NCBI GenBank assembly: GCA_024421085.1
Contig: JAHQYN010000001.1
Span: 5,009 to 69,008 of the forward strand
Length of the DNA: 64,000 nucleotides
Direction: 5' to 3'
From: Acidimicrobiia bacterium
GTDB taxonomy: Bacteria > Actinomycetota > Acidimicrobiia > Acidimicrobiales > Aldehydirespiratoraceae
Shown: positions 8,326-30,492 of the stretch, in pieces
Numbering within the stretch: position 1 is the stretch's first letter
Layout: each line of letters starts with the position of its first letter
The notes under the pieces: model-generated
Databases searched by the model: none
What the model was told of the DNA's origin: nothing
What the model saw: the letters and a program-made list of their open reading frames with translations, nothing else
Translations under genes and position numbers: made by a program

Positions 8326-11300
8326 ATGGAACGCCTCGATGAGTTGACCGAAGCCGCAAAGCAGACTTTGGAACACCACGACCATTCAGTGGCTCGGGAC
8401 TCGACATCCTCCGAGAGCGATATCCGAGCTGCGATAGTCGCGATGTTCATTAGCGGGGAATTGGCTAAACGGGACGAGATCTTGTTGGAGTCGGACCGCA
8501 CAGACCTTCGCACGGGCCACGTTCTTGTCGAAGTGAAACGACGGATCGGTGTTGGGACGGACCCAAAACCAGAACATCTTTCTCAGCTTGACCGTTACCT
8601 CAATGATGCCCGGACGAAAGGACGAGGCGAGCGGCTCGGGATACTCACCGACGGAAAGTACTGGGTGTTGCGTCCAAGCGCCGAGACCGGTCAACCCCTC
8701 AAGACCGCTAGCACCCGGACATTCACACTACGGAGCGCAAAGGCCGCGGTGGACTGGCTGGTGTGGGTGCGAGACGCAGCCGAGCTCACGTTCAGCAGGC
8801 TACCACAAGCGACATCTGAGATCGTCGCCAAAGCGTTCGGTACTGGTTTGATGGCCAGCAACGAGGTTACCGAACTTCGCCGCCTTTACGACGACCACAG
8901 AGCTCGTCCGACCATACAGGTCAAACGCGAGTTGTGGGAGACGTTGCTCGGAACAGCACTCGGTGAGGTGGTGTCTGAAACGAATGATATAGATGATCTG
9001 TTTGTACGCCACACGTATCTTACAGCGGTTGTTGGGTTGGCGCTGCAGTCAGCGTTTGGGATCGATATCGCGGATATCTCCGCTGACAATCCGAACAGCT
9101 TGATAGATGGGACTGTTTTCGCTGAGCGAACAGCGGTACGCGGAGTGATCGAATCTGACTTCTTCGGTTGGCCGACTGAAGTAACCGGCGGTGAATCATG
9201 GATCGAAGCATTAGCCCGCCGAGTAGCTCGCTTCGATTGGGGGTCAACTCAGATCGATCTTGGAAGCGTCTTGTATCAAAGCGTGATCAGCGCGAATGAA
9301 CGCAAGCGTCTTGGCGAATATTACACCCCCGATTGGTTGGCTGAAGCGGTAGTCAGTGAGACGGTCCAGGATCCACTAAATCAACGAGTGCTCGACCCTG
9401 CGTGTGGCTCTGGGACTTTTCTTCGTGAGTGCGTGAAAGCGTTCGTCGTTGAAGCAAAAGCGCAAGACGTTGATGCGCGCGATGCGCTGCTGTCGTTGCA
9501 GAACAAAGTGATTGGTGTTGATATTCATCCTGTCGCGGTCCACCTAGCTCGCACTGCTTGGATTCTGGCTGCCCGAGAATTGATAAGCGAGGTCGACGGA
9601 ACCGTCAAAGTAGCGGTCCCGGTATTTCTCGGAGATAGCCTGCAGACCCAAGCGAACGCTGAGAGTTTGTTCGGGCAGAACACCGCGGTTATTGTCTATG
9701 ACCCATCTAGCGGGATCAGTCTTGAGTTTCCGAGAGGCTTGGTTGACAGCGGAGATAGCTTCGATCTGTTGTTGTCGCGAGTTGCGATGGACATCAGTGA
9801 AGGGGTTGACCCTGTTCATATTCTCGAATGGGCAAAACAAAGCCTTGACTGGTTTGAATCAGCAAGCAGTGCCGACGTCAAGATGATTCGATCAACTTTA
9901 GAAGCGCTCACAAGGCTCCACGAGCAAGGCAGAGATCACATTTGGGCATACTTCACGCGCAACCTTGTGAGACCAATATGGTTGAGCACCGATGCTGGGA
10001 AGGTGGATCGAATAGTTGGAAATCCGCCATGGCTTACATACAACAAGACACGATCTACGATCCGAGACGCTCTCAAGAAATTTGCAAAGTCGATGTACGG
10101 TTTGTGGCCAAACCAGCAATATGTGACACACAGTGACTTGGCTGGACTGTTCTACGCCCGGTGCGTTGATCTCTATCTGCGTGGGGGAGGGCAAGCAGCA
10201 ATGGTGATGCCTCATTCGGTTCTGCTCGCGGGACAATACGAACCTTGGAGAACAGGTCAATGGGGCCACGTCAGCGTTGACCTTGGAGCGGAGCCCTGGG
10301 ATTGCGAAACACTGGACCCCAACAACTTTTTCCCGGTCCCCGCTTGCGTCGTGTTCGCGTCGAAGACTCAGGGCCGAGGTCTGTCGCGAACCGTGATTCA
10401 ATGGCATGGCTCACCGAACGACCCTACAAACATCAGGCGGGCGCCTCTTACCCTGCCTAAACTCGAGAGACAATCACGCTACGGGACACGCGCTAAACAA
10501 GGAGCGACCATCGTGCCGCGTGTCCTGTTCTTCGTTCAAGCTTTGGAGTCTGCGACCGCCATGCTCAACGGGTTCAGCGATGTGGTTCCGATGCGGTCAA
10601 GCCAAGAAAAAGAACCGTGGAAATCCCTAGACATTCCAACACTTAAAGCTACGATCTCAGACGACTACATTCATGATGTTCACCGCGGTGATACAATCGC
10701 TCCGTTTGTTGCCTTGCCTCCACAAAGAGCCGTGATCCCTTTCAAGAGAGGATCCACGGGTGTTCCTTGGACGAAAACGAATCCTAGCGTATTGCCCGTG
10801 CCTGATATAGGGTTGTGGCGCCGGTGGCAGGTGATGACACAGACTTGGGAAGCCAACAAAGCAGCAGCAAACAAACTAACGCTCGTGTCCCAGATTGATT
10901 ACCGGCTCAAGTTGACGCACCAACTGCCCGCAGCAAAGACGAGGTTGCTTTATGGTGCTTCGGGGCGACCAACGGCTACGATCTTATGTAACTCTGATGC
11001 GTTGATCGACTCTTCGTTGTTTTGGATTGAGTGCCGGGACGAGCCAGAAGCACATTATCTAGCGGCGATAATTAACAGTGACCGCCTGTATCACGCGGTG
11101 CGTCCGTTGATGTCTAAGGGACAGTTCGGTCCGCGTCACCTCCAAAAACACTTATGGAGGTTGAACATAGCGGAATACGAACCAACAAACCCCGTACACC
11201 AGAAACTCGCCGCACTCGGTGCAAAATCGGCGAAACAAGCGGCCCGAATCGTCGACTCGCTTGGGGCAGATGTTGCGATTGACAAAGCCCGGAAGGCCGT

Positions 11301-11367
11301 ACGCAAACAGTTCGCCGGATCAAAGATCTCAGCTGAGATCGAAAAACTGGTCGAAACGATGATCTAA
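8326..11367 (+). CDS. Single-polypeptide Type IIG/IIL restriction-modification enzyme (MmeI-like layout: N-terminal PD-ExK nuclease, gamma-class N6-adenine methyltransferase, C-terminal specificity region)
   Basis: ORF 8185-11367; the first ATG is at 8326 (MERLDELTE). Motifs are DLRTGHVLVEVKRR (D-x8-E-x-K), GILTDGKYWVL, EYYTPDWLA, LDPACGSGTFL (SAM motif I) and VGNPPWLTYN (motif IV). Hand-counted GC is about 45-55%, against about 70% in the flanks. Confidence 0.65.
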   Translation: MERLDELTEAAKQTLEHHDHSVARDSTSSESDIRAAIVAMFISGELAKRDEILLESDRTDLRTGHVLVEVKRRIGVGTDPKPEHLSQLDRYLNDARTKGRGERLGILTDGKYWVLRPSAETGQPLKTASTRTFTLRSAKAAVDWLVWVRDAAELTFSRLPQATSEIVAKAFGTGLMASNEVTELRRLYDDHRARPTIQVKRELWETLLGTALGEVVSETNDIDDLFVRHTYLTAVVGLALQSAFGIDIADISADNPNSLIDGTVFAERTAVRGVIESDFFGWPTEVTGGESWIEALARRVARFDWGSTQIDLGSVLYQSVISANERKRLGEYYTPDWLAEAVVSETVQDPLNQRVLDPACGSGTFLRECVKAFVVEAKAQDVDARDALLSLQNKVIGVDIHPVAVHLARTAWILAARELISEVDGTVKVAVPVFLGDSLQTQANAESLFGQNTAVIVYDPSSGISLEFPRGLVDSGDSFDLLLSRVAMDISEGVDPVHILEWAKQSLDWFESASSADVKMIRSTLEALTRLHEQGRDHIWAYFTRNLVRPIWLSTDAGKVDRIVGNPPWLTYNKTRSTIRDALKKFAKSMYGLWPNQQYVTHSDLAGLFYARCVDLYLRGGGQAAMVMPHSVLLAGQYEPWRTGQWGHVSVDLGAEPWDCETLDPNNFFPVPACVVFASKTQGRGLSRTVIQWHGSPNDPTNIRRAPLTLPKLERQSRYGTRAKQGATIVPRVLFFVQALESATAMLNGFSDVVPMRSSQEKEPWKSLDIPTLKATISDDYIHDVHRGDTIAPFVALPPQRAVIPFKRGSTGVPWTKTNPSVLPVPDIGLWRRWQVMTQTWEANKAAANKLTLVSQIDYRLKLTHQLPAAKTRLLYGASGRPTATILCNSDALIDSSLFWIECRDEPEAHYLAAIINSDRLYHAVRPLMSKGQFGPRHLQKHLWRLNIAEYEPTNPVHQKLAALGAKSAKQAARIVDSLGADVAIDKARKAVRKQFAGSKISAEIEKLVETMI

Positions 11368-11474
11368 CTCTGCGATGGTTGGAGAACAGTTCCATGACTC
11401 GCTCCATCCGCGTGACGCGACCATCAATGCGAGAGCGAGTCACACGGTGAGTTGCGGCGATCCCCCGCTCCGAT

Positions 11475-11823
11475 CCTCTTCGGTGACCTGGTGAACATGG
11501 CGCTGGTTGGCGATCCCGGCGATGTTGCCGAGCACGTCGATCCCTCCGTAGGTGGCGACACAGGCCTCGGCGGCAGCGCGGCACTCTGGGTCCGAGCGGA
11601 CGTCGGTGACCCGTCTGGACAGCTGCTGACCCGCGGAGGTGATCTCCGCTTCGGTCTCTGCCAGTTTGGCTTCGTCGATGTCGAGGTCGAACGCGCAGGC
11701 CGCCTCGGCGGCGAGGCGCCGGGCCGTCGCCCGCCCGATTCCCGATGCGACTCCGGTGAGCGACGCGATCTTGTGCGCGTATCGATTTGCGGCGCGGATC
11801 GTATCGCTCGGAGCGCCGCGCAA
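11475..11823 (-). pseudogene. Truncated SDR gene fragment (N-terminal ~115 codons only), about 80% aa-identical to the 5' part of 7334-8107
   Basis: ORF 11440-11823 reads ...IASLTGVASGIGRATARRLAAE...AAAEACVATYGGIDVLGNIAGIANQRHVHQVTEED and then runs into unrelated sequence. The catalytic YxxxK part is absent. Confidence 0.8.
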
Positions 11824-11940
11824 ACCAAATGTCGACTGGCATCTCGCAGGTTTTTGCCCCCCAAATGTCGATCGCGCGGGCCATTGTCACACACCTGGAC
11901 TACTGTTCGGCTCCGTGAACACCGCTATCGCACAGAACTG

Positions 11941-11972
11941 GAGTCTGCCCAATGAGGAGTCTGCCCAATGAG
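11941..11972. repeat. Perfect 16-bp tandem duplication (gagtctgcccaatgag x2) spanning the start codon of the first operon gene
   Basis: Copies at 11941-11956 and 11957-11972. The junction creates GAGGAG (11955-11960) 7 nt upstream of the ATG at 11968, and a 7-codon mini-ORF from the ATG at 11952. Confidence 0.9.
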
Positions 11973-12339
11973 TAATGATCCTTGGGGAAGCACCGACGAC
12001 GTCTTCGGAGACGATCAACTGGTCGCTGATGCGGCCGCGGTGCCTGTGGTTTCCGGCACTGGGTTGGGCCAGAGACACCGCGTGGTCGGCGTGGGGCCGC
12101 TGGTCTTGTCGCTGGCTGCTCTGGTGGTGTCATTGGCCGGCGCACCGGGCTACGCCATGGTGGGCCTGGCGGCGCTGGCCTATGTGCTGGCGGTGTTGAC
12201 CGACCTGTTCGTGCGCAGATCGCGGTACCGCCTACACAACTACAGCCGTTGCCTGACCACGGTGGCGCTGCGCGTCGGCACGTTCGTGGCCGCGCTCCTC
12301 GTCGGTTGGCTGGCGGCCTCGTCGATGGCGGGCGCGTGA
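11968..12339 (+). CDS. Small integral membrane protein (acidic N-terminus plus 3 predicted TM helices); first gene of the vWA/tubulin-like operon
   Basis: 123 aa. Hydrophobic stretches are VVGVGPLVLSLAALVVSLAG, YAMVGLAALAYVLAVLTDLFV and TVALRVGTFVAALLVGWLAA. An SD-like GAGGAG lies upstream. The stop TGA (12337-12339) overlaps the next ATG (12339). Confidence 0.55.
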   Translation: MSNDPWGSTDDVFGDDQLVADAAAVPVVSGTGLGQRHRVVGVGPLVLSLAALVVSLAGAPGYAMVGLAALAYVLAVLTDLFVRRSRYRLHNYSRCLTTVALRVGTFVAALLVGWLAASSMAGA

Positions 12340-15227
12340 TGAGGTTCGGTCGCCTCTTCGGCCTCGCCCTTCTGCTGGGCCTGCTGGGCGCGATCCTCGC
12401 CCTTGCTGCGCCCGACCGTCCCGCCTCCGCCGAGACCGGCATCAGCCCCACCGCCAAGTGCAAGCTGTCCGAAGCGCAGAACCAGATCAACGTAGTCCTG
12501 CTACTGGACGCCTCAGGAAGTCTCGAGGCGACCGACCCGGACCGCAACCGTCGAGACGGGTTGCAGGCTGCGGTTGAGAACCTGGCCGAACTGGCTGGCA
12601 ATGATGCAGCCAACATCGACATCGCGGTGGACACGTTCAACACCGTTTATCACAACAAGCACGGATGGCAGTCCGCGTCGGACGCGCGGCGCGAACTGAT
12701 CGGACGATACTCCGAAATCACCTCGTTGGGGAGCGGGCGTGGGAGGACTGACTATCGAGAGGCAATGCGCGGGTTGGATCAACGATTCGACGCCGCTTCG
12801 ACAACAGGCACATGCAACCTGTTGTTGTGGTTCACCGACGGTGAACACGCGACCGACGGCAGCAACGGCGTCACACCCGAGGAGTGGCAGCAGGTGGAGA
12901 CCCTGTGCTCCTCGACGGCGATGGGAGACTTGTCAGAGATCAACCTGTACACCGTCGGAGTGCTGTTGCAGTCCAGCGCCGGGACGGTAGACGCAGGGCC
13001 CCTGAGGTATCTGTTCGGGGAGGACGACGGGCGCGACTGTCCGTTCGCCCTCAACGGTGAGATCAAAGACGAATTTGATGCCGAACAGATCACTTCGGCT
13101 CTGGACGAACTGATCAACGAAGTCGTCTATGAGGTCCAGGCTGAGCTGCCAACCGACGACGACCTGCCCAATGAGGAGCAAGGGCTTCCCGAGGATTTTG
13201 GTGAATGTGAAGGCGTTGGCACCGCGGATGCTCCGTGCGTCTACGAGTTCACCTTGGATCCCGGCACCGAGGGCTTTCGCCTCTTCTTGGACATGACGTT
13301 CCTCAATCAAGAAATACGAAACCCAGAAGCGATCAGGTTTCGCTTGGTGTCACCGTCGGGTCGCAACGAAGAGATCGTCGTCGCTCCGCAAGGCGATGCA
13401 AATCTGAGCGACTATCAACCGGTTCGGTCGTTCGGGTTCTGGTCTCGAAGGCCCTACGACAGCCGCTGGGAGATCATTGGTCACATAGCGGCACAGGAGC
13501 GTGTCGGCGACAGCTGGGAATGGGAAGGGGAGTGGGATCTGCAATTCTGGGGTGACACGCCTCAAGCTGCCGATGAGGCCAGGAAGGTCGCCTCAGCCCT
13601 GCGAGAGATCACTGACGTGGCTCCGACAGCAGAGCAAATGTCTGTGAACGAGGACGGAACCCTGACCGGGTTCGTCGTCAACTATCCGGGCGGTTACTCC
13701 GATGTCGAGTTGCGCCTGCAACCCCGCGATAATAGTGGTGAGCCGGTGTATCCGGCCCGCGAGAACTTGACCTGCAGGTCTTTGACCGTCTGTGACCCAG
13801 TGCCGGTGGGCGACAGCGAGGCCGGGCGCCGTTTCGTTATTCCGAGCTTGTTCGACGAACTCCTCTGGTGGGACAGTGCTGACGGTGGCGGAGACACCAT
13901 GGCGCTCGACCAAGCACACACTGAGAGCGATCCGATCAAGATCGTTGCCGTATTGGGCCAATCATTCACCTACGGCAACGTGGAGGAGATGCAATGGTCA
14001 CGAGACATAGGAGAACTCCCACTGGCAGGTTTGACTCGACATCTCATGCGTCGCGAAAATTACGAGGATCTCAAGGATTGGCTCGAAATGGGAGGGTCCG
14101 ACGCTGTGCCCCTGTTGAGCCTCGAGCCCGCACCCTACGAGGTCTCAGGCGATCAGGTGAGCTTCGGGTTGAACGCCGGCAGTTCGGAGTTCGGCGGTGT
14201 GGTCACGCTGCAGGGCGCGACTGCTGAGATCGGCAGCGAGACGAAGCAGCTGCCGGTGGATTTCGACTATGCGTGCTCGGTCCCCCCTGAAGGAACGGAC
14301 TGCCCGGAGATCGCGTTTGATCTCGGCTTGTCTTCTGACAGCGATGTCATCGCGGTGTTGCACTTCGAGATATCGCCGCCAGGGGACCTCGAAGAAAAGA
14401 TCCGCGCCGACGGTGTGGCGCCGTCGAGACAGCAGATGGACGATCTGTGGCGCGAGGTCCAAGAGCGGACGCAACCGCGCACTGAGTCGGTTCGATCCGC
14501 AGAGTTTCGGGTGGACCTAGCGACCGCGAGCGACACCTTCGCGAAGTTCTTGCCGATTCTGCTGACGCTGATCGTGTTGGCCGGGCTGCTGCGGGTGCTC
14601 GTCGCTTGGAGGCTGCGTCCCTGGAACGCGCTCGGCAATGCTGAGTACCAAATGCAGCCACTGTCGATGGATGCTCTGGATCGTTCGATCGAAGCGGCCG
14701 AAAAGAACGTCTGCATGGACCTGACTAGACGGGCTGTGACGGCACGGGTCGGCGATGTGACGCTGGCGTCGAGTTGGATTCCGCTCCTGTTCGGAAAGCC
14801 GCCGTCGATCGAGGCAGTCCATTCGGGAGGCGCCGGATGTGCCGGGCCCCGCGCAATTAGGCCCGAGAAGGATCGCGCGGTCGGGATCGTCGGCAGCAGC
14901 TTGCAACAAGGTTGGGTAGTTGTGGCACACAGCGACTCGCGATTCGAGCTGATCGTTTGGGACCTGCCCTCTGCACTTGACGACCAAACCCAACACGTCC
15001 GCGATGTCGAGGACGCGGCTCGGGATGCGGTCGAGCGGCTGCGAGCCGACACGCGAACAGGCTCGGGGGCAGAATCCGCTGAGACCACCCAATCCCGAAG
15101 CGGCGACAGTCCACCACGCGACTCCTTCGGCGGCTCAGACGACCCGTTCAGCGGCACGAGCGACCCCTCCGGCGGCTCAGGAGATCCCTTCCGCAGTTCA
15201 GACAACCCGTTCAATTCGGGCTTCTAA
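12339..15227 (+). CDS. Secreted von Willebrand factor A (vWA/MIDAS) domain protein with a C-terminal TM anchor and a cytosolic tail
   Basis: ATG at 12339 gives the signal-like MRFGRLFGLALLLGLLGAILALAAP. MIDAS elements are VVLLLDASGSLE (DxSxS), GRTDY and LLLWFTDGEH. A late TM helix is FLPILLTLIVLAGLLRVLVAW. The tail ends in the DPF-rich SFGGSDDPFSGTSDPSGGSGDPFRSSDNPFNSGF. The upstream start at 12249 overlaps the previous gene. Confidence 0.8.
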   Translation: MRFGRLFGLALLLGLLGAILALAAPDRPASAETGISPTAKCKLSEAQNQINVVLLLDASGSLEATDPDRNRRDGLQAAVENLAELAGNDAANIDIAVDTFNTVYHNKHGWQSASDARRELIGRYSEITSLGSGRGRTDYREAMRGLDQRFDAASTTGTCNLLLWFTDGEHATDGSNGVTPEEWQQVETLCSSTAMGDLSEINLYTVGVLLQSSAGTVDAGPLRYLFGEDDGRDCPFALNGEIKDEFDAEQITSALDELINEVVYEVQAELPTDDDLPNEEQGLPEDFGECEGVGTADAPCVYEFTLDPGTEGFRLFLDMTFLNQEIRNPEAIRFRLVSPSGRNEEIVVAPQGDANLSDYQPVRSFGFWSRRPYDSRWEIIGHIAAQERVGDSWEWEGEWDLQFWGDTPQAADEARKVASALREITDVAPTAEQMSVNEDGTLTGFVVNYPGGYSDVELRLQPRDNSGEPVYPARENLTCRSLTVCDPVPVGDSEAGRRFVIPSLFDELLWWDSADGGGDTMALDQAHTESDPIKIVAVLGQSFTYGNVEEMQWSRDIGELPLAGLTRHLMRRENYEDLKDWLEMGGSDAVPLLSLEPAPYEVSGDQVSFGLNAGSSEFGGVVTLQGATAEIGSETKQLPVDFDYACSVPPEGTDCPEIAFDLGLSSDSDVIAVLHFEISPPGDLEEKIRADGVAPSRQQMDDLWREVQERTQPRTESVRSAEFRVDLATASDTFAKFLPILLTLIVLAGLLRVLVAWRLRPWNALGNAEYQMQPLSMDALDRSIEAAEKNVCMDLTRRAVTARVGDVTLASSWIPLLFGKPPSIEAVHSGGAGCAGPRAIRPEKDRAVGIVGSSLQQGWVVVAHSDSRFELIVWDLPSALDDQTQHVRDVEDAARDAVERLRADTRTGSGAESAETTQSRSGDSPPRDSFGGSDDPFSGTSDPSGGSGDPFRSSDNPFNSGF

Positions 15228-15246
15228 TAGAGAAAGGCAACACCGA

Positions 15247-18200
15247 ATGCTCAGACCAGTGATATTCATCGGATGCGGCGGTTCCGGGGAGAAGGCTGTG
15301 CGCTACGTGCGTTCCGCGGTCAAACGGACTCTGGACCAGGCCGCCTGGCAGAACGGGATGCCCGACTCCTGGCAGTTCATCGCCCTAGACACGCTGACAA
15401 CCCAGGAGAACCCGACCGAGATCCCGACCATTCCGGGCAATGACTTCCTTACCCTGTCCGCCGAGTTCGACGCCTACGCCGCGCTGCATCGTTCATTGGT
15501 GGCGGGGCACAGCGGACACCGCGGCGACCCGGAATTGTTGTGCGGCTGGCTGCCCGACCCCGACGAGGTGAACGTCCCCCTCAAGGACGGTGCCGGCCAG
15601 GTCCGCGCCATCGGCAGGGCAGTCGGGTTGCGTTCGCTTGAACGCACCTTGAAGCCGCGCCTCGAAGAAGCGTTCAGGCGGGCCAAGTCGGGGAACGCCG
15701 AGCTCTACGCGGTGGGCCAGTGCTTGGGGTTGGATACCGAACTCGGGTCTGACACGCCTGAGCCCCTGGTCGTGGTGTGCTCCTCAATGGCAGGAGGCAC
15801 CGGAGCGGGTGTGGCCCTCGACGTGGTGGACTTGCTGCGCCGCAGCGACCCGCTCGGGAACTACCCGACCCTGGTGCTGTTCGCCAACGACATTTTCGAC
15901 TTCCAAGCAAAGAACGACTCGATGACGGCCAACTCTCTGGGCCTGATCTCAGAGATGCTGGCGGCCTACTGGGCCAAGCCCGACGAGATCGATTCGCCGC
16001 TTGCGACGAGCAATGTGCAAGATGAGGGCGTCGGCCCCCACTCGGCGTTTATTCTCGGCAAGGCCGGTTACAGCGGCGCCGACCTGGGTAGCACCCAAGA
16101 GTTCTACCGTGCGGTCGGGGAGGCCCTTTCGAGTTGGGTCACGTCCAACACCGTGCAGGAGCAGGTCCACAACTTCATCAACGTCAACTGGCAAGCGAAC
16201 GCAAGCCAGAACTATGGCGGGTACCCGTTCGGGCGAGAGCAGCAGCTCGGCGCGCTCTCTTCGTTCGGCGCGGCCAAGCTGACCGTCGGCCGCGAACGCT
16301 TCGCGCAGTGGGCCAAGCACCAGTTGGGCAAGCAGATTCTCGAGGGGTTGATCCAGGGTCATCTCAGGCTCGCCGGCGACCTGCCTGACGGCCTTTCTGA
16401 TGAACGCAAGGTGGAGGAGGCCGGCAAGATCTACGCGGAGATGGTTTACCAGGCTTGGCCGAGGTGGGAGGCGCGGCCCGAACAGTTTCCTGGGCTCAAG
16501 GGAGCACGAACACAGTTCGCGTCAGATGAACAGCTGCGAGAAACTGTGAGCCGGCGCAAGCGCGAGATCAAACAGGATCTCCCCAGTGGACAGGAGGCTT
16601 TCGGCGAGCAATGGCGCGGTCAACTCGAGCGGTCCGGAAGGCGCCGTGTCGAGGAGGTCGAGCGAACGACCAGGGAGTTGTCCGCACGGGATCAAGCCTG
16701 GTGCCAGGACGTGGTCCACGCCACCTGCAGAGCTGCATCGCAGGTGGCCGCGGTGCAGTCGATGCCGGTGGCCGTTGCCGCGGTGACCGAAGCGGCGACG
16801 CGGTTGAACCGTGAGGAGGTCACCTTACTGCGCGCGGCGGCTTCCAGAGACAGCGCCAAGTATTCCAAGCGGGTCGCGGAGGGCCTTGCGACAATCGCTC
16901 GAGCTTCAGGGACGGTCAGTTCCGACGACCCGCGGCTCGACGAAGCGGTGACAGCCGTGGTTCAGGGCATTGCCTTGCACTGGCGGAGCCTCCGTCTCAC
17001 CAGGGCGGCCGAGGTGCTCGAACATGCCGAGACGCAATTGCTGGGGAGCATCGCTGATTCTTTTCGTGCTGCATCGGCCCAGGTCGGCGAGGCGTACCAG
17101 AGCGACGAGGTCAAGTCGTGGCCCGATCTGGAGGGTGTGCCCAGAAAGTATCTGCCGTCAACCGTGGAGTTCCCGCTGGAGCATCACGGCACATGGACCA
17201 ACAGTTTGGGACACCTCTGTGCCGAGGTTGCCGAAGGTGGCGTTCCTTACGGCGGGAGGTCCACAGACCCGTTGCGGTACTGCCTCATCACCGGCACCGA
17301 GTTGAGAGCCGACAACGATGAGATCAAGCCGCTGGTACACCTCTCACAATTCAAGCGCTGGACTCCCGGGCAACCCGTGGACATGACCTGCGATGCAAGG
17401 GCCGAAGACATTATTGAGCGGGTTGAACGCTGGATGAACGATCCCGGCGGGAGATTCAAACGTTTCCTCGACGAAGGCTTGGCCGCCTATCTCAGCGAGC
17501 ACGATTCCGACACCGACAGGCGCCGAGTCGACCACGTCGAGCGCCTTCGGAGGTTCCGAAGCCAACTTGGTGCGGCCAAGAACCGCTCGGAGCCCTTGGT
17601 GTCGATCAACGCCGACCTCTATGGGCAATGCCACGACAAGGCGATCGAGTTCACGACCATCTGCAGCCAGTTCCCGTTCCTTGAGGGTCATCCTGCTGCT
17701 GAGGACGCACGCAAGATCGTCGGCGACGACGCCTATGAGTCAGGCAATGCCGACACAACGTCGGTGCTGATCTCTCAGTACCTCAAGCACCCGATACACC
17801 CGTTGGTGGTGAGGTCCATAACGGATCCCATCAGCGATGCCCTCTCGGCTACCGAGGATCCCGGCGAGAGGGCGTCGTCTTTCTGGATGTGGCGCAGGGG
17901 GAGGCGGCTCGACGCCTTCGTGCCGCTGCCGCGGGAGCTGTTGGAGTCGGTCATCCGCGGGTTCGCGGTGGCGCGGCTCTGCGGCTATGTGACCGCCGAC
18001 ACCGACATCCCCATCCGGATCACAACCGAGCATGGGGTGGCATCTTTCCCGTGGCCGCTGTTGAGTCGTTTGAGTGCACAGAACGACATTCTTCCGGTTC
18101 TGCTTGAGAGCTTCTCGCTCACCTACGGGATGGTCCCGAGCGCGGGTTTTCGCACCTATGACGGTTTCAAGCGCCTCTACGAACTGGGCGAGCCAGTGAC

Positions 18201-18525
18201 ACAGGGTCGGATCCACGCCGAGCTGGAACATCTGCTCGAGACCGGCAGCCCGCCATTTCCGACGGTCGCCTCAGAGCAGCCGAAAGTCAGAGGTTCGAAT
18301 CCCACCGAGCGAAGAGAGTCGGCGCTCAAGTACCTCGAGGCCAACGACGGCTGGTTCTGGGATCAAAAGACCAAACGCAACGAAGGCAAGATATTCCACA
18401 AAGGACGCGACGGTCGCGCCGACGAGGGTGTGCCGACGATGGAGTTGGTTGAATTGCTGGGGAAGTGTTACAGCGAACTTCACATGCTGTTGAAGGCTGG
18501 CAGCGAGCGGGGCAGCGTGGTATGA
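15247..18525 (+). CDS. Large cytosolic tubulin/FtsZ-like GTPase-domain protein (Tubulin_2-type), 1092 aa
   Basis: ATG at 15247 is preceded by GAGAAAGG. The N-terminus VIFIGCGGSGEKAVRYV resembles the FtsZ/tubulin G1 (T1) loop. VVVCSSMAGGTGAGVALDVVDLLR matches the tubulin signature (S/A/G)GGTG(S/A)G (T4 loop). No signal peptide or TM helix is seen. Confidence 0.7.
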   Translation: MLRPVIFIGCGGSGEKAVRYVRSAVKRTLDQAAWQNGMPDSWQFIALDTLTTQENPTEIPTIPGNDFLTLSAEFDAYAALHRSLVAGHSGHRGDPELLCGWLPDPDEVNVPLKDGAGQVRAIGRAVGLRSLERTLKPRLEEAFRRAKSGNAELYAVGQCLGLDTELGSDTPEPLVVVCSSMAGGTGAGVALDVVDLLRRSDPLGNYPTLVLFANDIFDFQAKNDSMTANSLGLISEMLAAYWAKPDEIDSPLATSNVQDEGVGPHSAFILGKAGYSGADLGSTQEFYRAVGEALSSWVTSNTVQEQVHNFINVNWQANASQNYGGYPFGREQQLGALSSFGAAKLTVGRERFAQWAKHQLGKQILEGLIQGHLRLAGDLPDGLSDERKVEEAGKIYAEMVYQAWPRWEARPEQFPGLKGARTQFASDEQLRETVSRRKREIKQDLPSGQEAFGEQWRGQLERSGRRRVEEVERTTRELSARDQAWCQDVVHATCRAASQVAAVQSMPVAVAAVTEAATRLNREEVTLLRAAASRDSAKYSKRVAEGLATIARASGTVSSDDPRLDEAVTAVVQGIALHWRSLRLTRAAEVLEHAETQLLGSIADSFRAASAQVGEAYQSDEVKSWPDLEGVPRKYLPSTVEFPLEHHGTWTNSLGHLCAEVAEGGVPYGGRSTDPLRYCLITGTELRADNDEIKPLVHLSQFKRWTPGQPVDMTCDARAEDIIERVERWMNDPGGRFKRFLDEGLAAYLSEHDSDTDRRRVDHVERLRRFRSQLGAAKNRSEPLVSINADLYGQCHDKAIEFTTICSQFPFLEGHPAAEDARKIVGDDAYESGNADTTSVLISQYLKHPIHPLVVRSITDPISDALSATEDPGERASSFWMWRRGRRLDAFVPLPRELLESVIRGFAVARLCGYVTADTDIPIRITTEHGVASFPWPLLSRLSAQNDILPVLLESFSLTYGMVPSAGFRTYDGFKRLYELGEPVTQGRIHAELEHLLETGSPPFPTVASEQPKVRGSNPTERRESALKYLEANDGWFWDQKTKRNEGKIFHKGRDGRADEGVPTMELVELLGKCYSELHMLLKAGSERGSVV

Positions 18526-21257
18526 GCAACTCTGGGCGCCTGGTGGTCTTGGCGTCGTCGGACTCAGAGGAGTTGACGCAGTCGCTCAACGAGAGCCTTG
18601 CCGGTTGGTGCGCGGCGGGCCTGCTCGGCGAGGTGGTCTGGGCACCCGCGTCCGAGTTCGTCGACCAAGGCTACTCGGCGCTGTGTTGGTGCAACGAAGC
18701 CGGTGAGTGGACTCGGCGCACCTTCGGCGTGGCGATGTCGAGGCTCTATCGTGAAGAGGTCTGGCTCGCGGTGCTGCGCCACCCGCACGGGCCCGGGGGG
18801 TCGGTCTCCAAGGGTGCGGCGCGTCGCCGCGAACAGGAGGCCCACGCAGCACTTGAGGAAATGCTGGGATCGGCAATGAGGCTCCGGTCCCTGACCGTGC
18901 AGGTGGCCGACCGAGCGGTTGTCCGCGAGGTCGAGGACTGCATGCCGATCTGGGACTTCCACCTGATCCACGACAGCAGCGTCGAAGCCCACGAGTCGCT
19001 GCCGAGACTGAGGGCCGCCGACCGCGAGGCGTTGAGTCTCTGCGCCCTGGTTGCGCTGTGCGCCGCGGGCGGTTGGAGCAAGGCGGTCAAGAGCCTCGAG
19101 TGGGAGCCGGACCGGTCCGACGGACCGTACAAGCCGGCCCGCTACGTCCACGCCCAGATGAGGATACTCCACGCGCCGCCGGTGCCGGTCTTGGCAACAC
19201 CGAAAGCTCCACCCTGGCCTCTGCCCAACACTGCGGGCGTCACCCGGGCGCGCCCAGTCGAGGTGCCACCCCTGCGGTTGGCCGAGTTCCTCGCCAAGCA
19301 GAGCCGATTCGTCTGCGAACCTCCGCCGCTGGTGCCCGACCCACCGGACCGGTTCAGCCCCCGGCGGGTCTTCAGCCGCCTGTTCGACGCCGTGCCTTGG
19401 CCGGTAGCCGATACCAAGGCTGAACAGGCGCTGAAGCGGCTCGGCGACCGCACCGGGGGATTCACCGAGGCGTCGAGGGGGGAGTCGCGGCTCAAGCTTG
19501 ACGACACCGCGGACCTGCCGAGCCTGATCCAACACCTCGAACGCAGCGATTTCGTCGACATCGGGCTCTCGCACAGGCTCGCCCTGAATCCCGAGGCTTG
19601 GCAGACCATGCGTGAGACGATGTTCGGTCTGGTTGACGGCGGCCCGTTGCCTGCTGGAGTGACGCATCCCGCACTGTCGATCGACGGCGACTCCAAGCGA
19701 TTGATCTGGACCGACCCGAGCGGTGTGGCACCGCCGGTCGCGCCCGCCGAAGCCACGGACCTGTTGGCCGAACCTGAACCGCCTGAACCCCCTGCATCGT
19801 CAATGCCTGATGAGTCAATGCCTGATGACGGGCCCGCAGTCGGGAACGGGCGCTATCGATTCGCTTCGGACAACGACGAGGAACAAACCGATTCCGAGGA
19901 GTCCAAAGAGCCTCCGCGTCGCAGTTTCCGAGAGCGCTTCGACAAAGCCGAGCCCACGCCGGAGCCTCCCGAGCGGGTCGCGCCGCGTGACACGCTTATG
20001 GAGAGGCTGGCCGACACGCTGCGCCGGGGACTGCTCGAGGCCCAGCGCGGCTTCAGAAAGAACTGCGGACGGGTCTCGGTGGCCGACGCATACGACGACG
20101 CGCGCGCTGCCCAGAGGTCGGTCAGGTTTCGGCTGCTGTCTTTGGCGTTGCTCCTGGTCGTCGCGCTCGCCTACGCCATCGACCAACGCTGGTCGTACCT
20201 GGCACGCGTCTGGGAGTTCGCCACGCCTTTCGAGGCTCTGACCAACGGGGGGACCTCGTCTCCTTTGGCGGAATGGTACGTTCTGATCCCCTTGTACCTG
20301 GCCGTGGCAACAGCTCTGCTGTGGAAGCCCCTGCGAAAATTGAACGAGAATTTTCAGCGCTTCGAGTACCTCAGTGCGCGGCGCGAACGCCTCGGCAGAC
20401 ACTGCGGGCACTACGCAGTCGAACTGGTGAGACTGTACAACAGTGCCCAGCAGTTCAGCGACCACCGGTCGATCATCACCGAGTTTCTGCATCGCCCGTT
20501 CGGACCGTTGCCGAACGCACGGGACTCCGCGCTGTCGCCTGATGATCTGGCCTTCCAGTCGCCGCCGCCGCACTCGATGCTGGTCGCCTGCGCCGAGGTG
20601 ACGCCCCCGAGACTCGATGCCCTGCGACGGCGCAAACAGGAATCAGCGGTTGATTCGGGATGGTTGACCGACTGCTACCACCGGGTGTATCGGGCATGGT
20701 CCGATCGCTACCGGGAGCGGTTCCTCGGCAACTTCGACGATCCGGACCACGACATACTGCCGCGCGACAGCGTGGCCCGCCGAGACCGGCACGACCACAG
20801 CGACGTCTACGGCGCCCGGACCGAATTTTCCAAAGGTGTCGCTGCGGACCCGGACGACGAGGGGAGCGGCTGGGCGGTCCGACAGGCGACCGACGACCAG
20901 GTGGTCCGCTATCAAGACGACGAATTGGCTGACGAGTACCTGGAGTTGTTCGAGTCGATCAAGTCGGTGCATGGTCTTCAGCCCGGGATCGACGCCAAGT
21001 CCTTCTTCACCTTCGCCGATCAGCCGCACCGCTTCGACTGGAACGACCTGCTGCGTCCGGGAGCGCATCGGCCGGCCGAGAGTTCACAGCCGTTGCCGAC
21101 CCGAAGGTATGTGATACCCGACGCTGCCGAGGGTCGGTCGCTGGTGGTCGGGTGGCGCCTCGACCTGTCGGGCGCAGTGCGTCCCCAGGACCAGATCGGT
21201 TGGCAGGACGAGGGCCATGACGACCGGCCGACCAGCACCGCGGGGTCCGTCGTTTGA
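18522..21257 (+). CDS. 911-aa membrane protein of unknown function (large N- and C-terminal soluble regions around a 2-TM hairpin, with a Pro/acidic linker)
   Basis: ATG at 18522 overlaps the upstream stop (ATGA at 18522-18525). TM candidates are FRLLSLALLLVVALAYAI and WYVLIPLYLAVATALLW. I recognise no catalytic motif. Confidence 0.6.
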   Translation: MSNSGRLVVLASSDSEELTQSLNESLAGWCAAGLLGEVVWAPASEFVDQGYSALCWCNEAGEWTRRTFGVAMSRLYREEVWLAVLRHPHGPGGSVSKGAARRREQEAHAALEEMLGSAMRLRSLTVQVADRAVVREVEDCMPIWDFHLIHDSSVEAHESLPRLRAADREALSLCALVALCAAGGWSKAVKSLEWEPDRSDGPYKPARYVHAQMRILHAPPVPVLATPKAPPWPLPNTAGVTRARPVEVPPLRLAEFLAKQSRFVCEPPPLVPDPPDRFSPRRVFSRLFDAVPWPVADTKAEQALKRLGDRTGGFTEASRGESRLKLDDTADLPSLIQHLERSDFVDIGLSHRLALNPEAWQTMRETMFGLVDGGPLPAGVTHPALSIDGDSKRLIWTDPSGVAPPVAPAEATDLLAEPEPPEPPASSMPDESMPDDGPAVGNGRYRFASDNDEEQTDSEESKEPPRRSFRERFDKAEPTPEPPERVAPRDTLMERLADTLRRGLLEAQRGFRKNCGRVSVADAYDDARAAQRSVRFRLLSLALLLVVALAYAIDQRWSYLARVWEFATPFEALTNGGTSSPLAEWYVLIPLYLAVATALLWKPLRKLNENFQRFEYLSARRERLGRHCGHYAVELVRLYNSAQQFSDHRSIITEFLHRPFGPLPNARDSALSPDDLAFQSPPPHSMLVACAEVTPPRLDALRRRKQESAVDSGWLTDCYHRVYRAWSDRYRERFLGNFDDPDHDILPRDSVARRDRHDHSDVYGARTEFSKGVAADPDDEGSGWAVRQATDDQVVRYQDDELADEYLELFESIKSVHGLQPGIDAKSFFTFADQPHRFDWNDLLRPGAHRPAESSQPLPTRRYVIPDAAEGRSLVVGWRLDLSGAVRPQDQIGWQDEGHDDRPTSTAGSVV

Positions 21258-23002
21258 GACCTGAGGATCCGTTCTGCTCGGCTTCAGACGATGAGGGTCG
21301 CGACGATCCGTTCACCGAGCCGGACGGTTTCTTCTCGGCTTCAGACGATGAGGGTGGCGATGGCCGGTTCACCGAGCCGGACGGTTTCTTCTCGGCTTCA
21401 GACGATGAGGGTGGCGACGACCGGTTCTCCGAGCCGGACGGTTTCTTCTCGGTTTCAGACGATGAGGGTGGCGATGGCCGGTTCTCCGAGCCGGACGGTT
21501 TCTTCTCGGCTTCAGACGATGAGGGTGGCGATGACCGGTTCTCCGAGCCGGACGCTTTTGACCCCGACGTGTGCAGTCGGAGCGGCGCGGGCCGAGCCGC
21601 TGGGTCCTTTGCACACGGTCGACGGGTCGATCGGAGGTTGGTTGATCTGAGGCTGTTGGTCGCGGGCGCGGCGCTGGTCGCGGCCGTTGTCGCCGCTGGT
21701 GTCGTCGCATCGCTGAGCAACGGCGGCGAGGTGTCAACAACTCCCGACGCTTCCCCGGTGCCTACAGCGGTGCCCTCAACGGTGCCTCCCACGACGCTTG
21801 GGGGGCCCGCAGAACCGGCGCCGACCAGCATCGCCGCGAACGGGGCCGACGCACCCCGAGTGCCGGACCCGGCACCGGACGCACCGGACGCGCTGCTTGG
21901 ATGCGACGACCGGAGCGGCGACGATCCTCATGGTCTGGTCAGGGTCGACGAGATCACCGAGCGGCTCAGTTTCTGTGGTGAGGAGACCTGGCAAGTGTTC
22001 GTTTGCAGTGCGCGGGAATCGGACCGAGCAGATCGGGTCGCCTATGTTGATGACGTATTGGGGGAGGCGGCCGAGTGGTTCGAGTGGGCCAGCGCCGGCC
22101 AATACGACATCGACTTCTCCGCCGGAGACGACACCAGGGCGGTGTCCGGCGGCACCGCCGGCCCGCAGGAGTGTTTCGAGGAGGTTCTGCAAAATCAGTG
22201 GAGTGAATCGCGCAGCGGAGCGCTGGTCCTCGTCGATGAGGCCGCGCTCGATCCGCTGGGGGGATGGGCCGGAGTCGGCACCTGCGGATACATAGGCTCC
22301 ACAAGCGCCCGCGAGTTCGGCGAGAGTGGCAGGATGGTCGCCATCGCGGTGCATGCACGAGGTGACCAGAGTGCGATTGCGGTACACGAGCTGGGGCATG
22401 CCCAATGTTGGCCGCACTCGTACTCCGGTGAGACCGGCTCGGAGTACGACAATCCCGCAGACGTCTTGTCCTCAGGCCAGAACTGGCCCGTGGGAACGAT
22501 TGCGGTGAACCGCTATGCGTCGGGCTGGATACACCCCGACGCAGTCCGCGTCCATCGCAGCTCCACCGGTGCCTACACGCTGTCGCCATGCTGCAGCGGG
22601 GGAGTGCAGATGCTTGCCCTCCTCCCACAAGAAGCGTCCGAGCAGCCAGTTGATTTCAACCGGCGATGGTGGCACCTCGAAGTGCGCGACCCCCAAGACG
22701 ACTGGGAACGGGGTCTCGCAGACACTGAGGTCGGGACACAACTCGGGGTCTCGGTCCACTGGATCGACCAGAGCGTCGGGTTGGGCCCCGAACGGCGCCA
22801 GGCTCAAGTCGGCAATCAGGCCGGCTTTGAGTTCGGCGTTCCTGTGCGTTTCGGTCGATTGAGGGCCGTCGGCAGCGAGTTCTGCCTGCATTCCGACCAA
22901 CCGAGGGCGTTGCTCGACTGCAGCAGTGCTCACCACTGGCGGGTCGAGGTGAGTGCTTCGCAGGCCGGGGGCCTGAGCCTCACGCTGACTCCAGGCTCGT
23001 AA
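21254..23002 (+). CDS. Membrane-anchored zinc metalloprotease-like protein (metzincin-type HExxHxxxxxH spacing) with a cytosolic acidic 19-aa repeat tail
   Basis: The TTG start overlaps the upstream stop (TTGA at 21254-21257). It has five 19-aa repeats (DPFTEPDGFFSASDDEGGD-like), a TM helix LLVAGAALVAAVVAAGVVASL, and then AIAVHELGHAQCWPHSY. Confidence 0.65.
   Translation: MRPEDPFCSASDDEGRDDPFTEPDGFFSASDDEGGDGRFTEPDGFFSASDDEGGDDRFSEPDGFFSVSDDEGGDGRFSEPDGFFSASDDEGGDDRFSEPDAFDPDVCSRSGAGRAAGSFAHGRRVDRRLVDLRLLVAGAALVAAVVAAGVVASLSNGGEVSTTPDASPVPTAVPSTVPPTTLGGPAEPAPTSIAANGADAPRVPDPAPDAPDALLGCDDRSGDDPHGLVRVDEITERLSFCGEETWQVFVCSARESDRADRVAYVDDVLGEAAEWFEWASAGQYDIDFSAGDDTRAVSGGTAGPQECFEEVLQNQWSESRSGALVLVDEAALDPLGGWAGVGTCGYIGSTSAREFGESGRMVAIAVHARGDQSAIAVHELGHAQCWPHSYSGETGSEYDNPADVLSSGQNWPVGTIAVNRYASGWIHPDAVRVHRSSTGAYTLSPCCSGGVQMLALLPQEASEQPVDFNRRWWHLEVRDPQDDWERGLADTEVGTQLGVSVHWIDQSVGLGPERRQAQVGNQAGFEFGVPVRFGRLRAVGSEFCLHSDQPRALLDCSSAHHWRVEVSASQAGGLSLTLTPGS
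21266..21565. repeat. 57-bp tandem repeat, about 5 copies, in frame within the 5' end of the protease gene
   Basis: Unit starts are at 21305, 21362, 21419, 21476 and 21533, plus a truncated first unit at 21266. The differences are mostly D/G and T/S codon changes. Confidence 0.9.
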
Positions 23003-28453: not shown

Positions 28454-30492
28454 TTGATAGCGAACTGGCCGATACGGTTCTTGGGCGTGGCTCGAAGGCT
28501 GGAAATCGAACTGACCTCAAATCGCTCCGACGGCAAGTGGACTTGGCGTGCCGCAGGCGCGAAGCAACCGAAGGGAACTCTCGACGGTTCGCTGCTCCCA
28601 GAAGGGACCGAGGTCGGCGATGTCTTGAAGGTGGAGGCCGACGCGACTCTCGATGGACTCGAGATCACCGCTGTGCTTCCCACCCGGTCTCCGAGAGCTG
28701 AAGTTGAGATACTGCCGCTGCTCGGTTCGGGTCGAAAGCAGCCGCTGGTCACTTCACAACTGGCACCCAAGATCCGCTCCCGGGCACGCGGCGCCGACAG
28801 GGATCGGCCCGGCACCGCGCCAACCCGCCGCAAACGCGCAGACCGCGGCGAACGGCGCAGAAACGACGACAACCGAACTTCAAGATCCGCCACGAAACAG
28901 GATCGCCGCCGCCCCGGCGAGGATGCCCGCTCCCGTGATCAGAAGCGGGCCGACCGCCCCGAGGGCCGCCCCAAGACCCGCGACAAAAACCGTGGCGGTA
29001 CCGACAAGGGGGCCTCGCGGGACCAGCAAGGCAAGCGAAACAGTCGGGCCAGCTCCCAGAGGCGGCCGAAACCACGCTCTACGCCTAGGGCTCACCGCCT
29101 TCGTCCCCGCACCAATAACCGTCGTGCCGCTCTCGCAAAATTGCCGGAGATCCAACATCCGCTCGCCGAGGAGGTTATCAAGGGAGGTGTCCCCGGTCTG
29201 CGCAAGACGATCGACCGGATGAACAAGATGGCTCAGGCCGAAGGTATCCCCAAGGTCTCCTCGGAACCGCTGGTTGCCTTGGCAGAGAAGCTGACACCTG
29301 ATTTGAACGCAGCTCTCTGGCGCGACCGGGCTGAAGCCGCCATCGCGGGAATCGACAAGGTCGACCTGCGCGACATCCGCAGCGTGGTTGTGGCCGCTGA
29401 CAGCGGTGCTCGCGACGAAGAGTCCCGTGAACTTGCAGAGCAACTGCGCGAGGGACTGTCGGCCCGGGTCGAGAACGAGCATCGATCCTGGCTCAACGAG
29501 ATCGCCGAGCATCTCGCCGATGGGCGGACAGTGCGTGCTCTGCGGCTCAGCAGTCACCCCCCGAAGGCCGGGGCCCCGCTGCCCTTCGACGTGGCGGATC
29601 GCCTGACCAGTGCGGCCTCGGAATCGTTGAGCAGTGACATCGCTCCCCAGCGCTGGGCGACGGTATTGGACGCAGTGGCCTTCTCCCCTGTCCGCTCCCA
29701 GGTGACTCCCCAGGGCTGCCCCCCCAATCCCAATGAGCAGTTGCTCACCACCGTGCGCAGGTTGGCTTCGAAAGTCCCCGACATTGCAGCCTTGTTCGGG
29801 ATAACGCCCTCGGGCCCCCCAAAACGCTCAGCGACGAAGCGGCGACCCACACCCCCTCCCCCGCCGACCCCGCCCCCCCCGCGCCCCCCCAAACCCGCTC
29901 AGCGCCGAAGCGGCGCCCCCCCCCCCCCCCCCCGCCGCCCCCGCCCCCCGCCGAGCCCGTGGCGGCCGACTTGGCGACCGCTGAACCAGCGGCCGCAGAG
30001 TCTCCAGTTGACCCCGTGGCCGAGGAGCCTTCGGTTGAACCCGTCGCCGCTGGATCCGTGACCGCTGAACCGGCGGCCGCAGAGTCTCCGGTTGACCCCG
30101 TGGCCGAGGAGCCTCCGGTTGATCCCGTGGCCGAGCAGCCGGTGGCCGCAGAGCCTTCGGTTGACTCCGTGACCGCTGAACCGGTGGCCGAGGAGCCTGC
30201 GGTTGATCCCGTGGCCGAGCAGCCGGTGGCCGTAGAGTCTCCGGTTGATCCCGGGGCCGAGGAGCCCGTGGCCGCAGAGCCTGTGGTGGTGCCGGTGGCC
30301 GTAGAGTCTCCGGTTGATCCCGTGGCCGAGCAGCCGGTGGCCGCAGAGCCTGTGGTGGTGCCGGTGGCCGTAGAGTCTCCGGTTGATCCCGGGGCCGAGG
30401 AGCCCGTGGCCGATGAGGTGGCGGTCGAGGAGGGACCCACTCCCCCGCCACCGTCCGCAGGCCTCGACCCGACCGAAAGGGTCGACAAATGA
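28454..30492 (+). CDS. Hypothetical protein with basic, helical, Pro-rich and acidic-repeat regions; the reading frame is broken at an 18-nt poly-C tract (frameshifted gene or two genes)
   Basis: Frame A (28454-30061) enters the poly-C and then gives low-quality sequence. Frame B is open through the tract, encodes PVDPVAEEP-type repeats, and ends in an ATGA overlap with the next gene at 30489-30492. One extra C, or two fewer, would fuse the frames. Confidence 0.45.
29916..29933 (+). repeat. Homopolymeric C tract, 18 nt (with additional C8 and C7 runs at 29873-29880 and 29884-29890)
   Basis: Counted directly from the sequence lines. Confidence 0.95.
29977..30425. repeat. Nested in-frame tandem repeats (84-bp period at 29977/30061; 69-bp period at 30223/30292/30361) encoding acidic PVDPVAE(E/Q)P repeats
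   Basis: Read directly. All periods are multiples of 3 in frame B. Confidence 0.85.

Follow-up and report, generated by a model that had tools for sequence, protein, structure and literature searches.

We analyzed a five-gene operon (genes A to E) within a 64-kb stretch of DNA from an Acidimicrobiia bacterium (hereafter, the window) and found that three of the membrane proteins it encodes carry, at their ends, a genuine short linear motif (SLiM), an acidic D-P-[F/W] or, less often, D-P-L, N-P-F or D-x-F. The operon itself is known, being a representative of the vWA/FtsZl1 (Pfam Tubulin_2) operons described by Makarova and Koonin in 2010 (PMC2875224), and it is the tails of its proteins that are newly described here. 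We propose that these motifs dock the proteins that bear them, the vWA protein B, the membrane-bound metalloprotease E and the small membrane protein A, to a cytoplasmic partner encoded by the same operon, a reading suggested by sequence comparison to which we assign a probability of about 0.55. That the motif is a functional, conserved linear motif, whatever its partner, appears to us very probable.

The reading frame of gene B ends in SFGGSDDPFSGTSDPSGGSGDPFRSSDNPFNSGF followed directly by a stop codon, and the C-terminal tail that it encodes (15114..15224, plus strand) contains DPF at 15141-15149, DPF at 15183-15191 and NPF at 15204-15212 before the terminal NSGF, in agreement with the three (D/N)PF motifs that the initial annotation had counted there. 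The tail is a degenerate 21-bp (7-residue) repeat, which extends from 15119 to 15213. The N-terminal tail of protease E holds two intact DPF motifs (plus strand), at 21266-21274 (EDPF, residues 4-7, ahead of the repeat array) and at 21305-21313 (DDPF), together with a tandem repeat (21272..21558, plus strand; 57 bp × 5.0, 93% matches) that runs in frame and encodes five 19-residue units, as had been annotated, with the form A/V-SDDEG-R/G-D-D/G-P/R-F-T/S-EPDGFFS. The formula originally given for each unit, D(P/R)F(T/S)EPDGFF, describes the array broadly, except that copies 2 and 4 have no aspartate two residues before the phenylalanine and copy 5 ends in PDAF; copy 1 reads DDPF, copies 3 and 5 read DDRF, and copies 2 and 4 read DGRF. 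The motif had been recognized in two membrane proteins, which are B and E, and a third carrier was overlooked: the predicted cytosolic N-terminal tail of the small membrane protein A (MSNDPWGSTDDVFGDD, 11968-12010) contains a DPW (11977-11985) followed by DDVF, a degenerate second copy (11995-12006; both plus strand). A search of all six frames of the window for in-frame [DN]P[FW] pairs no more than 40 residues apart returned the tails of B and E and one antisense frame. We rejected this last cluster (~31145, minus strand), which lies antisense to an enoyl-CoA hydratase-like open reading frame (ORF; 30489-31250, a label read from the sequence).

The repeats of E are translated if the gene starts at its TTG codon, and two observations indicate that it does: complete homologues begin with M-x4-DPF at the position of this TTG, and an identical 582-residue product with the same start is recorded from two other contigs (P0144). 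The same two observations rule out a GTG start at ~21569, which would leave the repeats out of the protein.

We compared 58 genome loci, retrieved by alignment of C homologues and examined with 10-kb flanks. Across Actinomycetota, the order B-C-D is kept throughout these loci, the arrangement of a vWA gene with an FtsZl1 gene is kept in more than 45 of them, and a D-like gene follows C in every locus long enough to show it, with gene E present in closer relatives only. The B tails cannot be aligned with one another; the most enriched recurring tripeptide in their last 60 residues is DPF, found in 33 of 51 non-redundant tails versus 2.05 expected from composition-preserving shuffles, none of which reached 33 in 1000 trials. 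In 36 of the same 51 tails, no more than 10 residues separate the end of a [DN]P[FLW] motif from the C-terminus, and motif density in B is 2.55 per 100 residues in the tail versus 0.15 elsewhere, a 17-fold difference. An independent sample gave a similar picture: scanning 1.84 billion representatives with HMMER for the cytosolic domain of B yielded 33 cluster representatives, and the terminal motif is present in 25 of them. DPF occurs in every one of the 18 non-redundant E tails, with 74 motifs versus 2.3 in shuffles and a density of 4.26 versus 0.087 per 100 residues, 49-fold above the rest of the protein. Complete E homologues have between two and nine DPF motifs, typically four, ahead of the transmembrane (TM) segment, and both intact DPF positions of the window protein are kept in all of those whose N-termini are complete. 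For the B and E tails, motifs are thus kept in orthologous operons despite total drift of the flanking tail sequence, a point on which the docking idea of the initial annotation depended. Conservation of the motif, divergence of its flanks and enrichment over composition are the marks of a SLiM.

The motif extends to further proteins. Homologues of A that are 38-80% identical have it at the N-terminus in 11 of 13 cases; eight of the 13 start with MS/VS-x-DPWG, six of these add a DPF at residues 11-13 (MSxDPWGSxxDPF), and more distant A proteins have starts such as MTSWEHDPFAF. In more distant loci, from Nostocoides and Dermatophilaceae, B proteins bear DPW arrays of up to six 15-residue repeats, one of which, at locus L055, consists of 6 × DPWATPAAPGGAPPA. 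At two loci, a six-TM protein encoded downstream of D terminates in DDLPF (L040, 10335-11414) or DDPF (L043, 16262-17299), and these ends resemble those of the vWA proteins of the same loci (DDDLPF and PPDLPF, respectively, again directly before the stop codon). In some lineages, the six-TM protein is a fourth kind of acidic-PF carrier.

We propose the following mechanism. The DPF/DPW motifs would act as multivalent docking peptides in the disordered cytoplasmic tails of A, B and E and, in some lineages, of the six-TM protein, and would tie membrane proteins with extracellular working domains to one common, operon-encoded cytoplasmic receptor. Candidates for this receptor are C, the tubulin-like GTPase, D, which is its constant partner, and the cytosolic, beta-rich domain of B; all three are present in nearly every motif-bearing locus, and we regard them as equally possible. 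Naming C specifically is a tentative choice. A cytoplasmic scaffold would in this way place or cluster the vWA and protease modules outside the cell, and tandem duplication would tune the number of motif copies and thereby set avidity. The sequences establish that the motif is present, enriched, conserved, confined to these proteins and variable in copy number; the topology and disorder of the tails, their binding and the identity of their receptor are inferences. Several points weigh against our proposal. A receptor was not found, in that the AlphaFold2 model of D, which has low confidence (mean predicted local distance difference test, pLDDT, of 58.6), and fold searches showed no peptide-binding fold, and the receptor might be encoded outside the operon. 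The compared sequences are phylogenetically related, and the shuffle statistics consequently overstate their independence. The topology of the tails is based only on hydrophobicity and the positive-inside rule, and in B the bias in lysine and arginine is weak (111 vs 147). Finally, most motifs of the E array in the window have no proline, which could mean relaxed selection on the E tail.

The alternative that survives best, although we consider it rather unlikely, is recognition of the motifs by a housekeeping factor from another part of the genome, such as a cytoskeletal or divisome protein, a quality-control protease or adaptor for which they would be terminal degrons, or an insertion or sorting factor. 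The motifs do lie at extreme termini, as is often the case for degrons and sorting tags, and no receptor domain was recognized in C or D. However, the motif clusters are confined to the operon in the neighborhoods that we could survey: among 799 proteins predicted from the loci and their 10-kb flanks, mainly from higher-GC loci because our crude gene caller failed on low-GC ones, two DP[FW] motifs within 50 residues occur in 34, all of which are A, B or E homologues. Moreover, the flavor of the motif shifts jointly within a locus: in L040 both B and the six-TM protein have DLPF, in L043 they have DLPF and DDPF, respectively, and Nostocoides-type loci have DPW arrays. Such joint shifts fit a co-inherited receptor.

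We regard as distinctly improbable a second alternative, in which there is no folded receptor and the phenylalanines and tryptophans act as aromatic stickers between acidic Gly/Ser/Pro spacers, clustering the tails in a condensate-like or fuzzy manner by self-association or by binding to basic surfaces. The tails are highly multivalent and variable in copy number, as this alternative would have it, the array in the window tolerates the loss of proline, and Corynebacterium vWA proteins have tails that are GW-rich instead of carrying DPF. Against it stands the strictness of D-P-F and its fixed positions at the protein ends (M-x4-DPF and DPF-x(0-8)-COOH) over a range of 27-100% identity in C, which point to a defined pocket, and the strong net negative charge of the tails (37 Asp and Glu vs 8 Lys and Arg in the E tail, 10 vs 4 in the B tail), which would make them repel each other. 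At the two Corynebacterium loci (L044 and L045), FtsZl1 itself ends in DNPFGGPF directly before its stop codon (C gene end ~13816-13834), and the motif may have moved there from the vWA protein.

The history of the protease array can be followed in a syntenic relative, L059, whose tubulin-like protein is 94% identical to that of the window. Its E tail has two 19-residue units with six perfect DPF motifs (EDPFYSASDNEGRDDPFTEPDPFYSASDNEGREDPFTEPDPFDPDPF), in which DPFY stands where the window has DGFF and DPF where the window has DRF. Because the equivalent positions read DPFY in L059, GFF is not a separate motif, and the initial suggestion that it is a second motif beside DPF was not borne out. 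This comparison presents the window array as a recent, strain-specific expansion to five copies in which most prolines have been lost (DRF, GRF, DGF and DAF), that is, as a weakened or altered DPF array rather than a second, GFF-type motif. Repeat copy number does differ between strains and lineages, as had been considered at the outset: units of 19 residues are present five times in the window and twice, along with six DPF motifs, in L059, P0145 and P0147, and a 13-residue unit is present four times in P0162, with nine DPF motifs. Different DPF units have thus expanded independently in different lineages.

Tandem repeats also bear on the view, which we strongly disfavor, that the motifs are a functionless, neutral by-product of slippage-prone, low-complexity sequence: the repeats in the window are 93% identical in DNA and the differences among copies are mostly non-synonymous, but the motifs of most orthologues sit in a non-repetitive context with unalignable flanks, are enriched 17- to 49-fold relative to the rest of the same proteins and are common to three or four unrelated protein families.

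Predicted topology and predicted disorder agree that the tails of A, B and E are cytoplasmic and flexible. On the charge-hydropathy plane the tails of B and E plot as disordered and that of A is borderline, and AlphaFold2 assigns residues 1-125 of E a pLDDT of ~30 with no secondary structure, followed by a confidently modeled TM helix. Location in disordered regions, a further mark of a SLiM, therefore applies to the motifs in the B and E tails. These predictions match the initial description of the two tails as acidic and disordered, by charge-hydropathy for both and by AlphaFold2 for E, and also its placement of them on the side of the membrane that holds the tubulin-like protein, since the predicted topology is cytoplasmic and C has no TM segment. 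If the topology were wrong, the tails, acidic and rich in aspartate, could lie outside the cytoplasm as ligands of metal ions or of the cell envelope; the topology is only predicted and the positive-inside signal of B is weak, but the signal-like N-terminal segment of B followed by one further TM segment puts its C-terminus inside, E homologues have 98 lysines and arginines on the side of the membrane helix that bears the tail vs 38 on the opposite side, basic clusters flank TM1 and TM2 of A on the tail side, and the catalytic domain of E is preceded by a Pro/Thr-rich linker of the kind usual for exported domains, all of which leaves an extracytoplasmic location very unlikely. The bacterium is probably a sponge symbiont; C has relatives in Candidatus Poriferisocius, Poriferisodalis and Aldehydirespiratoraceae, and an Acidimicrobiaceae metagenome-assembled genome encodes a protein 100% identical to D. 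Mimicry of the endocytic motifs of a sponge host was nonetheless ruled out, because the tails are predicted to be cytoplasmic and the motif occurs in non-sponge lineages (Ilumatobacteraceae, Nostocoides and Dermatophilaceae).

A second terminal signature links C and D to each other. Both proteins of the window end in GSVV (C, 18514-18522, within KAGSERGSVV; D, 21246-21254), and their last residues are identical in 33 of 39 loci versus 10.4 expected, a value that none of 100000 permutations reached. The two last residues co-vary over nine residue types (V, I, T, S, A, L, G, F and M), as illustrated by the C/D pairs GSVV/SVV, GSVI/GGVI, GSVT/GGVT, EQIS/SQVS, KTVA/PVVA, MSTL/HSPL, RGRG/QLRG, QVYG/TPYG, LMNSTF/LGNSTF and PMAM/IQGM. 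Homology of C and D was ruled out as the source of the match (hhalign probability 0.1), as was duplication of DNA, for the codons differ (AGC GTG GTA vs TCC GTC GTT). The covariation suggests that a single reader may recognize the C-termini of both proteins. It is possible, though we hold the idea with reservation, that two peptide codes have co-evolved in these operons: multivalent DP[F/W] tags, borne by all membrane components with a cytoplasmic end, that would dock to a C-D hub, and a residue code at the C-termini of C and D that would be read at a single site, with a GTP-driven cytoplasmic polymer gathering and positioning the external vWA adhesin and the protease.

A known counterpart of such shared ends is EEY/F-COOH, which is common to alpha-tubulin, EB1 and CLIP-170 and has CAP-Gly domains as its readers. 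The likeness is that a tubulin-family protein, C, and its partner, D, end in the same residues; the differences are that these residues are x-S-V-V and others and that no CAP-Gly domain was detected.

The DPF tails themselves recall two other systems. The conserved C-terminal peptide of FtsZ (D-I/V-P-x-F-L type) binds FtsA, ZipA and SepF. Both there and in the window operon, a disordered linker ends in a short acidic-Pro-Phe peptide that connects, or is proposed to connect, a tubulin-superfamily system with membrane proteins. Unlike the FtsZ peptide, however, the motif resides on the membrane proteins A, B and E and the tubulin homologue C ends in GSVV, so that the polarity is reversed; it also reads D-P-F without a spacer residue, is usually present in several copies and occurs in several different proteins. 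C does not carry the FtsZ peptide, the Corynebacterium FtsZl1 being an exception that we note. In eukaryotic endocytosis, arrays of DPF, DPW and NPF motifs (Eps15, epsin) are read by AP-2 appendage and EH domains. Like those arrays (PMC6912373), the tails contain DPF, DPW and NPF in acidic, disordered regions with variable copy number, and binding in the endocytic system is based on avidity and ties membrane-associated proteins to a cytoplasmic hub, as we propose for the operon. The operon differs in that bacterial, integral membrane proteins carry the motifs and in that no AP-2 appendage or EH reader domain was found in A to E by a Pfam scan, which returned VWA and Tubulin_2 only. The FtsZ peptide and the endocytic arrays are accordingly analogies only, the window proteins belonging to neither system, and the likeness to the eukaryotic arrays is almost certainly convergent.

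The five genes of the operon are on the plus strand and are tightly packed or overlapping (window 11968-23002). Gene A (11968..12339) encodes a small membrane protein of 123 residues with two to three TM segments. Gene B (12339..15227) encodes a type-I membrane protein of 962 residues, in which an N-terminal signal or anchor segment is followed by an extracytoplasmic vWA domain (residues 52-169) with an intact MIDAS motif (DASGS), a single TM segment (residues ~735-757, nt 14541-14609), a beta-rich cytosolic domain of ~170 residues (758-925, nt 14610-15113) and the 37-residue disordered tail; its Pfam matches are VWA_2 over the full profile (E 3.4e-5; 24.8 bits, just below the cut-off of 27) and VWA (E 0.007). 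The start of gene C (15247..18525) lies 20 nt beyond the B stop codon, and its product is a cytosolic protein of 1092 residues that matches PF13809 well above the curated cut-off (E 3e-35; 122.6 bits vs 27) over profile positions 1-355 of 356 and keeps the GTP-binding loops of tubulins (T1, GCGGSG; T4, AGGTGAG), which places it in the FtsZl1/Tubulin_2 family. A profile search with C against PDB sequences found coiled-coil or low-complexity matches only and no related solved structure. The co-oriented, adjacent genes for C and for a vWA protein with an intact MIDAS motif identify the operon as being of the vWA/FtsZl1 type.

Gene D (18522..21257) begins with an ATG that overlaps the C stop codon and encodes a protein of 911 residues with no known domain. 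Its N- and C-terminal parts are both cytosolic, the former being large, and between them lie an acidic disordered linker and then a TM hairpin (nt ~20115-20321). Pfam, NCBIfam and PADLOC scans assigned D to no family, a Foldseek search of its model against the PDB gave nothing below E 0.1, and scattered matches of its N-terminal domain to vWA-like or flavodoxin-like three-layer folds are left without interpretation. None of the five operon proteins matches a defense system in PADLOC. Gene E (21254..23002), whose TTG start overlaps the D stop codon (TTGA), encodes a type-II membrane zinc metalloprotease of 582 residues, with the cytosolic N-terminal tail (residues 1 to ~125), a TM helix (residues ~128-154, nt ~21635-21715), the Pro/Thr-rich linker and the catalytic domain. 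Its catalytic motif, HELGHAQCWPH (22385-22417, plus strand), has the zincin/metzincin-like pattern HExxHxxxxxH, and H378, E379, G381, H382 and H388 do not vary among 25 sequences. Weak matches to an M6 domain (E 0.0017), to ADAMTS/MMP and, as the top fold match of a catalytic domain modeled by AlphaFold2 with low confidence, to InhA2 (E 0.029) are consistent with this protease class; E is not assignable to the M6 (InhA) peptidases, scoring 18.3 bits with TIGR03296 at a cut-off of 110.8.

Two extra single-pass membrane-protein genes (~225 and ~255 residues) lie between D and the protease gene in L003 (16120-17543), L004, L008, L015 and L039. Their products have no Pfam match, no cytosolic tail and no DPF motif, and the genes are missing from the window, L059 and L060, where D abuts E. 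The flanks of L059 contain metabolic genes only. At the start of gene A, a perfect 16-bp tandem duplication (GGAGTCTGCCCAATGA × 2, 11940-11971) that is not found in L059 spans the ribosome-binding site and the ATG and yields a tiny upstream ORF, MRSLPNE, which overlaps the start of A. Farther upstream, the GC content falls to 56-57% at ~8000-12000 of the window, compared with about 65%, and this stretch includes an ORF of 1060 residues (8185-11367) with an NPPW-type DNA methyltransferase motif, adjoined by the truncated remnant of a short-chain dehydrogenase gene (11440-11823, minus strand). Because adh_short genes are intact at this place in relatives, the lower-GC stretch resembles an insertion immediately ahead of the operon. 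Elsewhere in the window, the region at ~29745-30500 is highly repetitive, with Ser/Thr/Gly/Ala-rich repeats (ATGSTGDSTATG) in one frame and PRDQPETLRPPA repeats in another.

The proposed roles of FtsZl1 are membrane remodelling (2010, PMC2875224) and conflict or immunity systems (2020, PMC7159879), the latter in the context of the GAP1-N2 GTPase-centric systems and the actinobacterial tubulin theme described by Kaur et al. (2020, PMC7159879). As in the vWA/FtsZl1 operons, the window places a Tubulin_2 protein that has a long, helical region at its C-terminal end beside a membrane-bound vWA protein with a beta-rich domain; unlike the vWA/FtsZl1 and GAP1-N2 operons as described, it adds an ecto-metalloprotease. 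The operon of the window lacks GTPase and GAP1 genes, and none of its five proteins has a family match that would make it a GAP1-N2-type DO-GTPase conflict system. Only a distant, Nostocoides-type locus, L046, was found to encode a GAP1-N2 protein downstream of B-C-D (18914-21574; PF20013, E 1.8e-9), which ties the Nostocoides version of the operon to the systems of Kaur et al. Neither PMC2875224 nor PMC7159879 mentions DP[F/W] tails or matched C-termini of C and D, and our literature search found no work on bacterial DPF/DPW motifs and no experimental study of FtsZl1/Tubulin_2.

FtsZl1/Tubulin_2 is a highly divergent and widespread branch of the tubulin superfamily, and a reviewer of the 2010 study raised the question of how FtsZl1, being cytoplasmic, could cooperate with vWA proteins that are exported (PMC2875224). 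A candidate answer to this objection is offered by the conserved DP[F/W] tags in the predicted cytoplasmic tails of B, E and A. The proposed link is concrete and cheap to test: DPF peptides such as GSGDPFRSSDNPFNSGF can be used in pull-downs, together with F-to-A point mutants, and offer a route to the hub. If our proposal is true, these operons would stand as a clear example of wiring by multivalent linear motifs in bacteria, convergent with that of eukaryotic endocytic adaptors, and if the two-code reading is true, its DP[F/W] code would parallel, by convergence in prokaryotes, the eukaryotic adaptor network built on DPF/DPW motifs and appendage domains.

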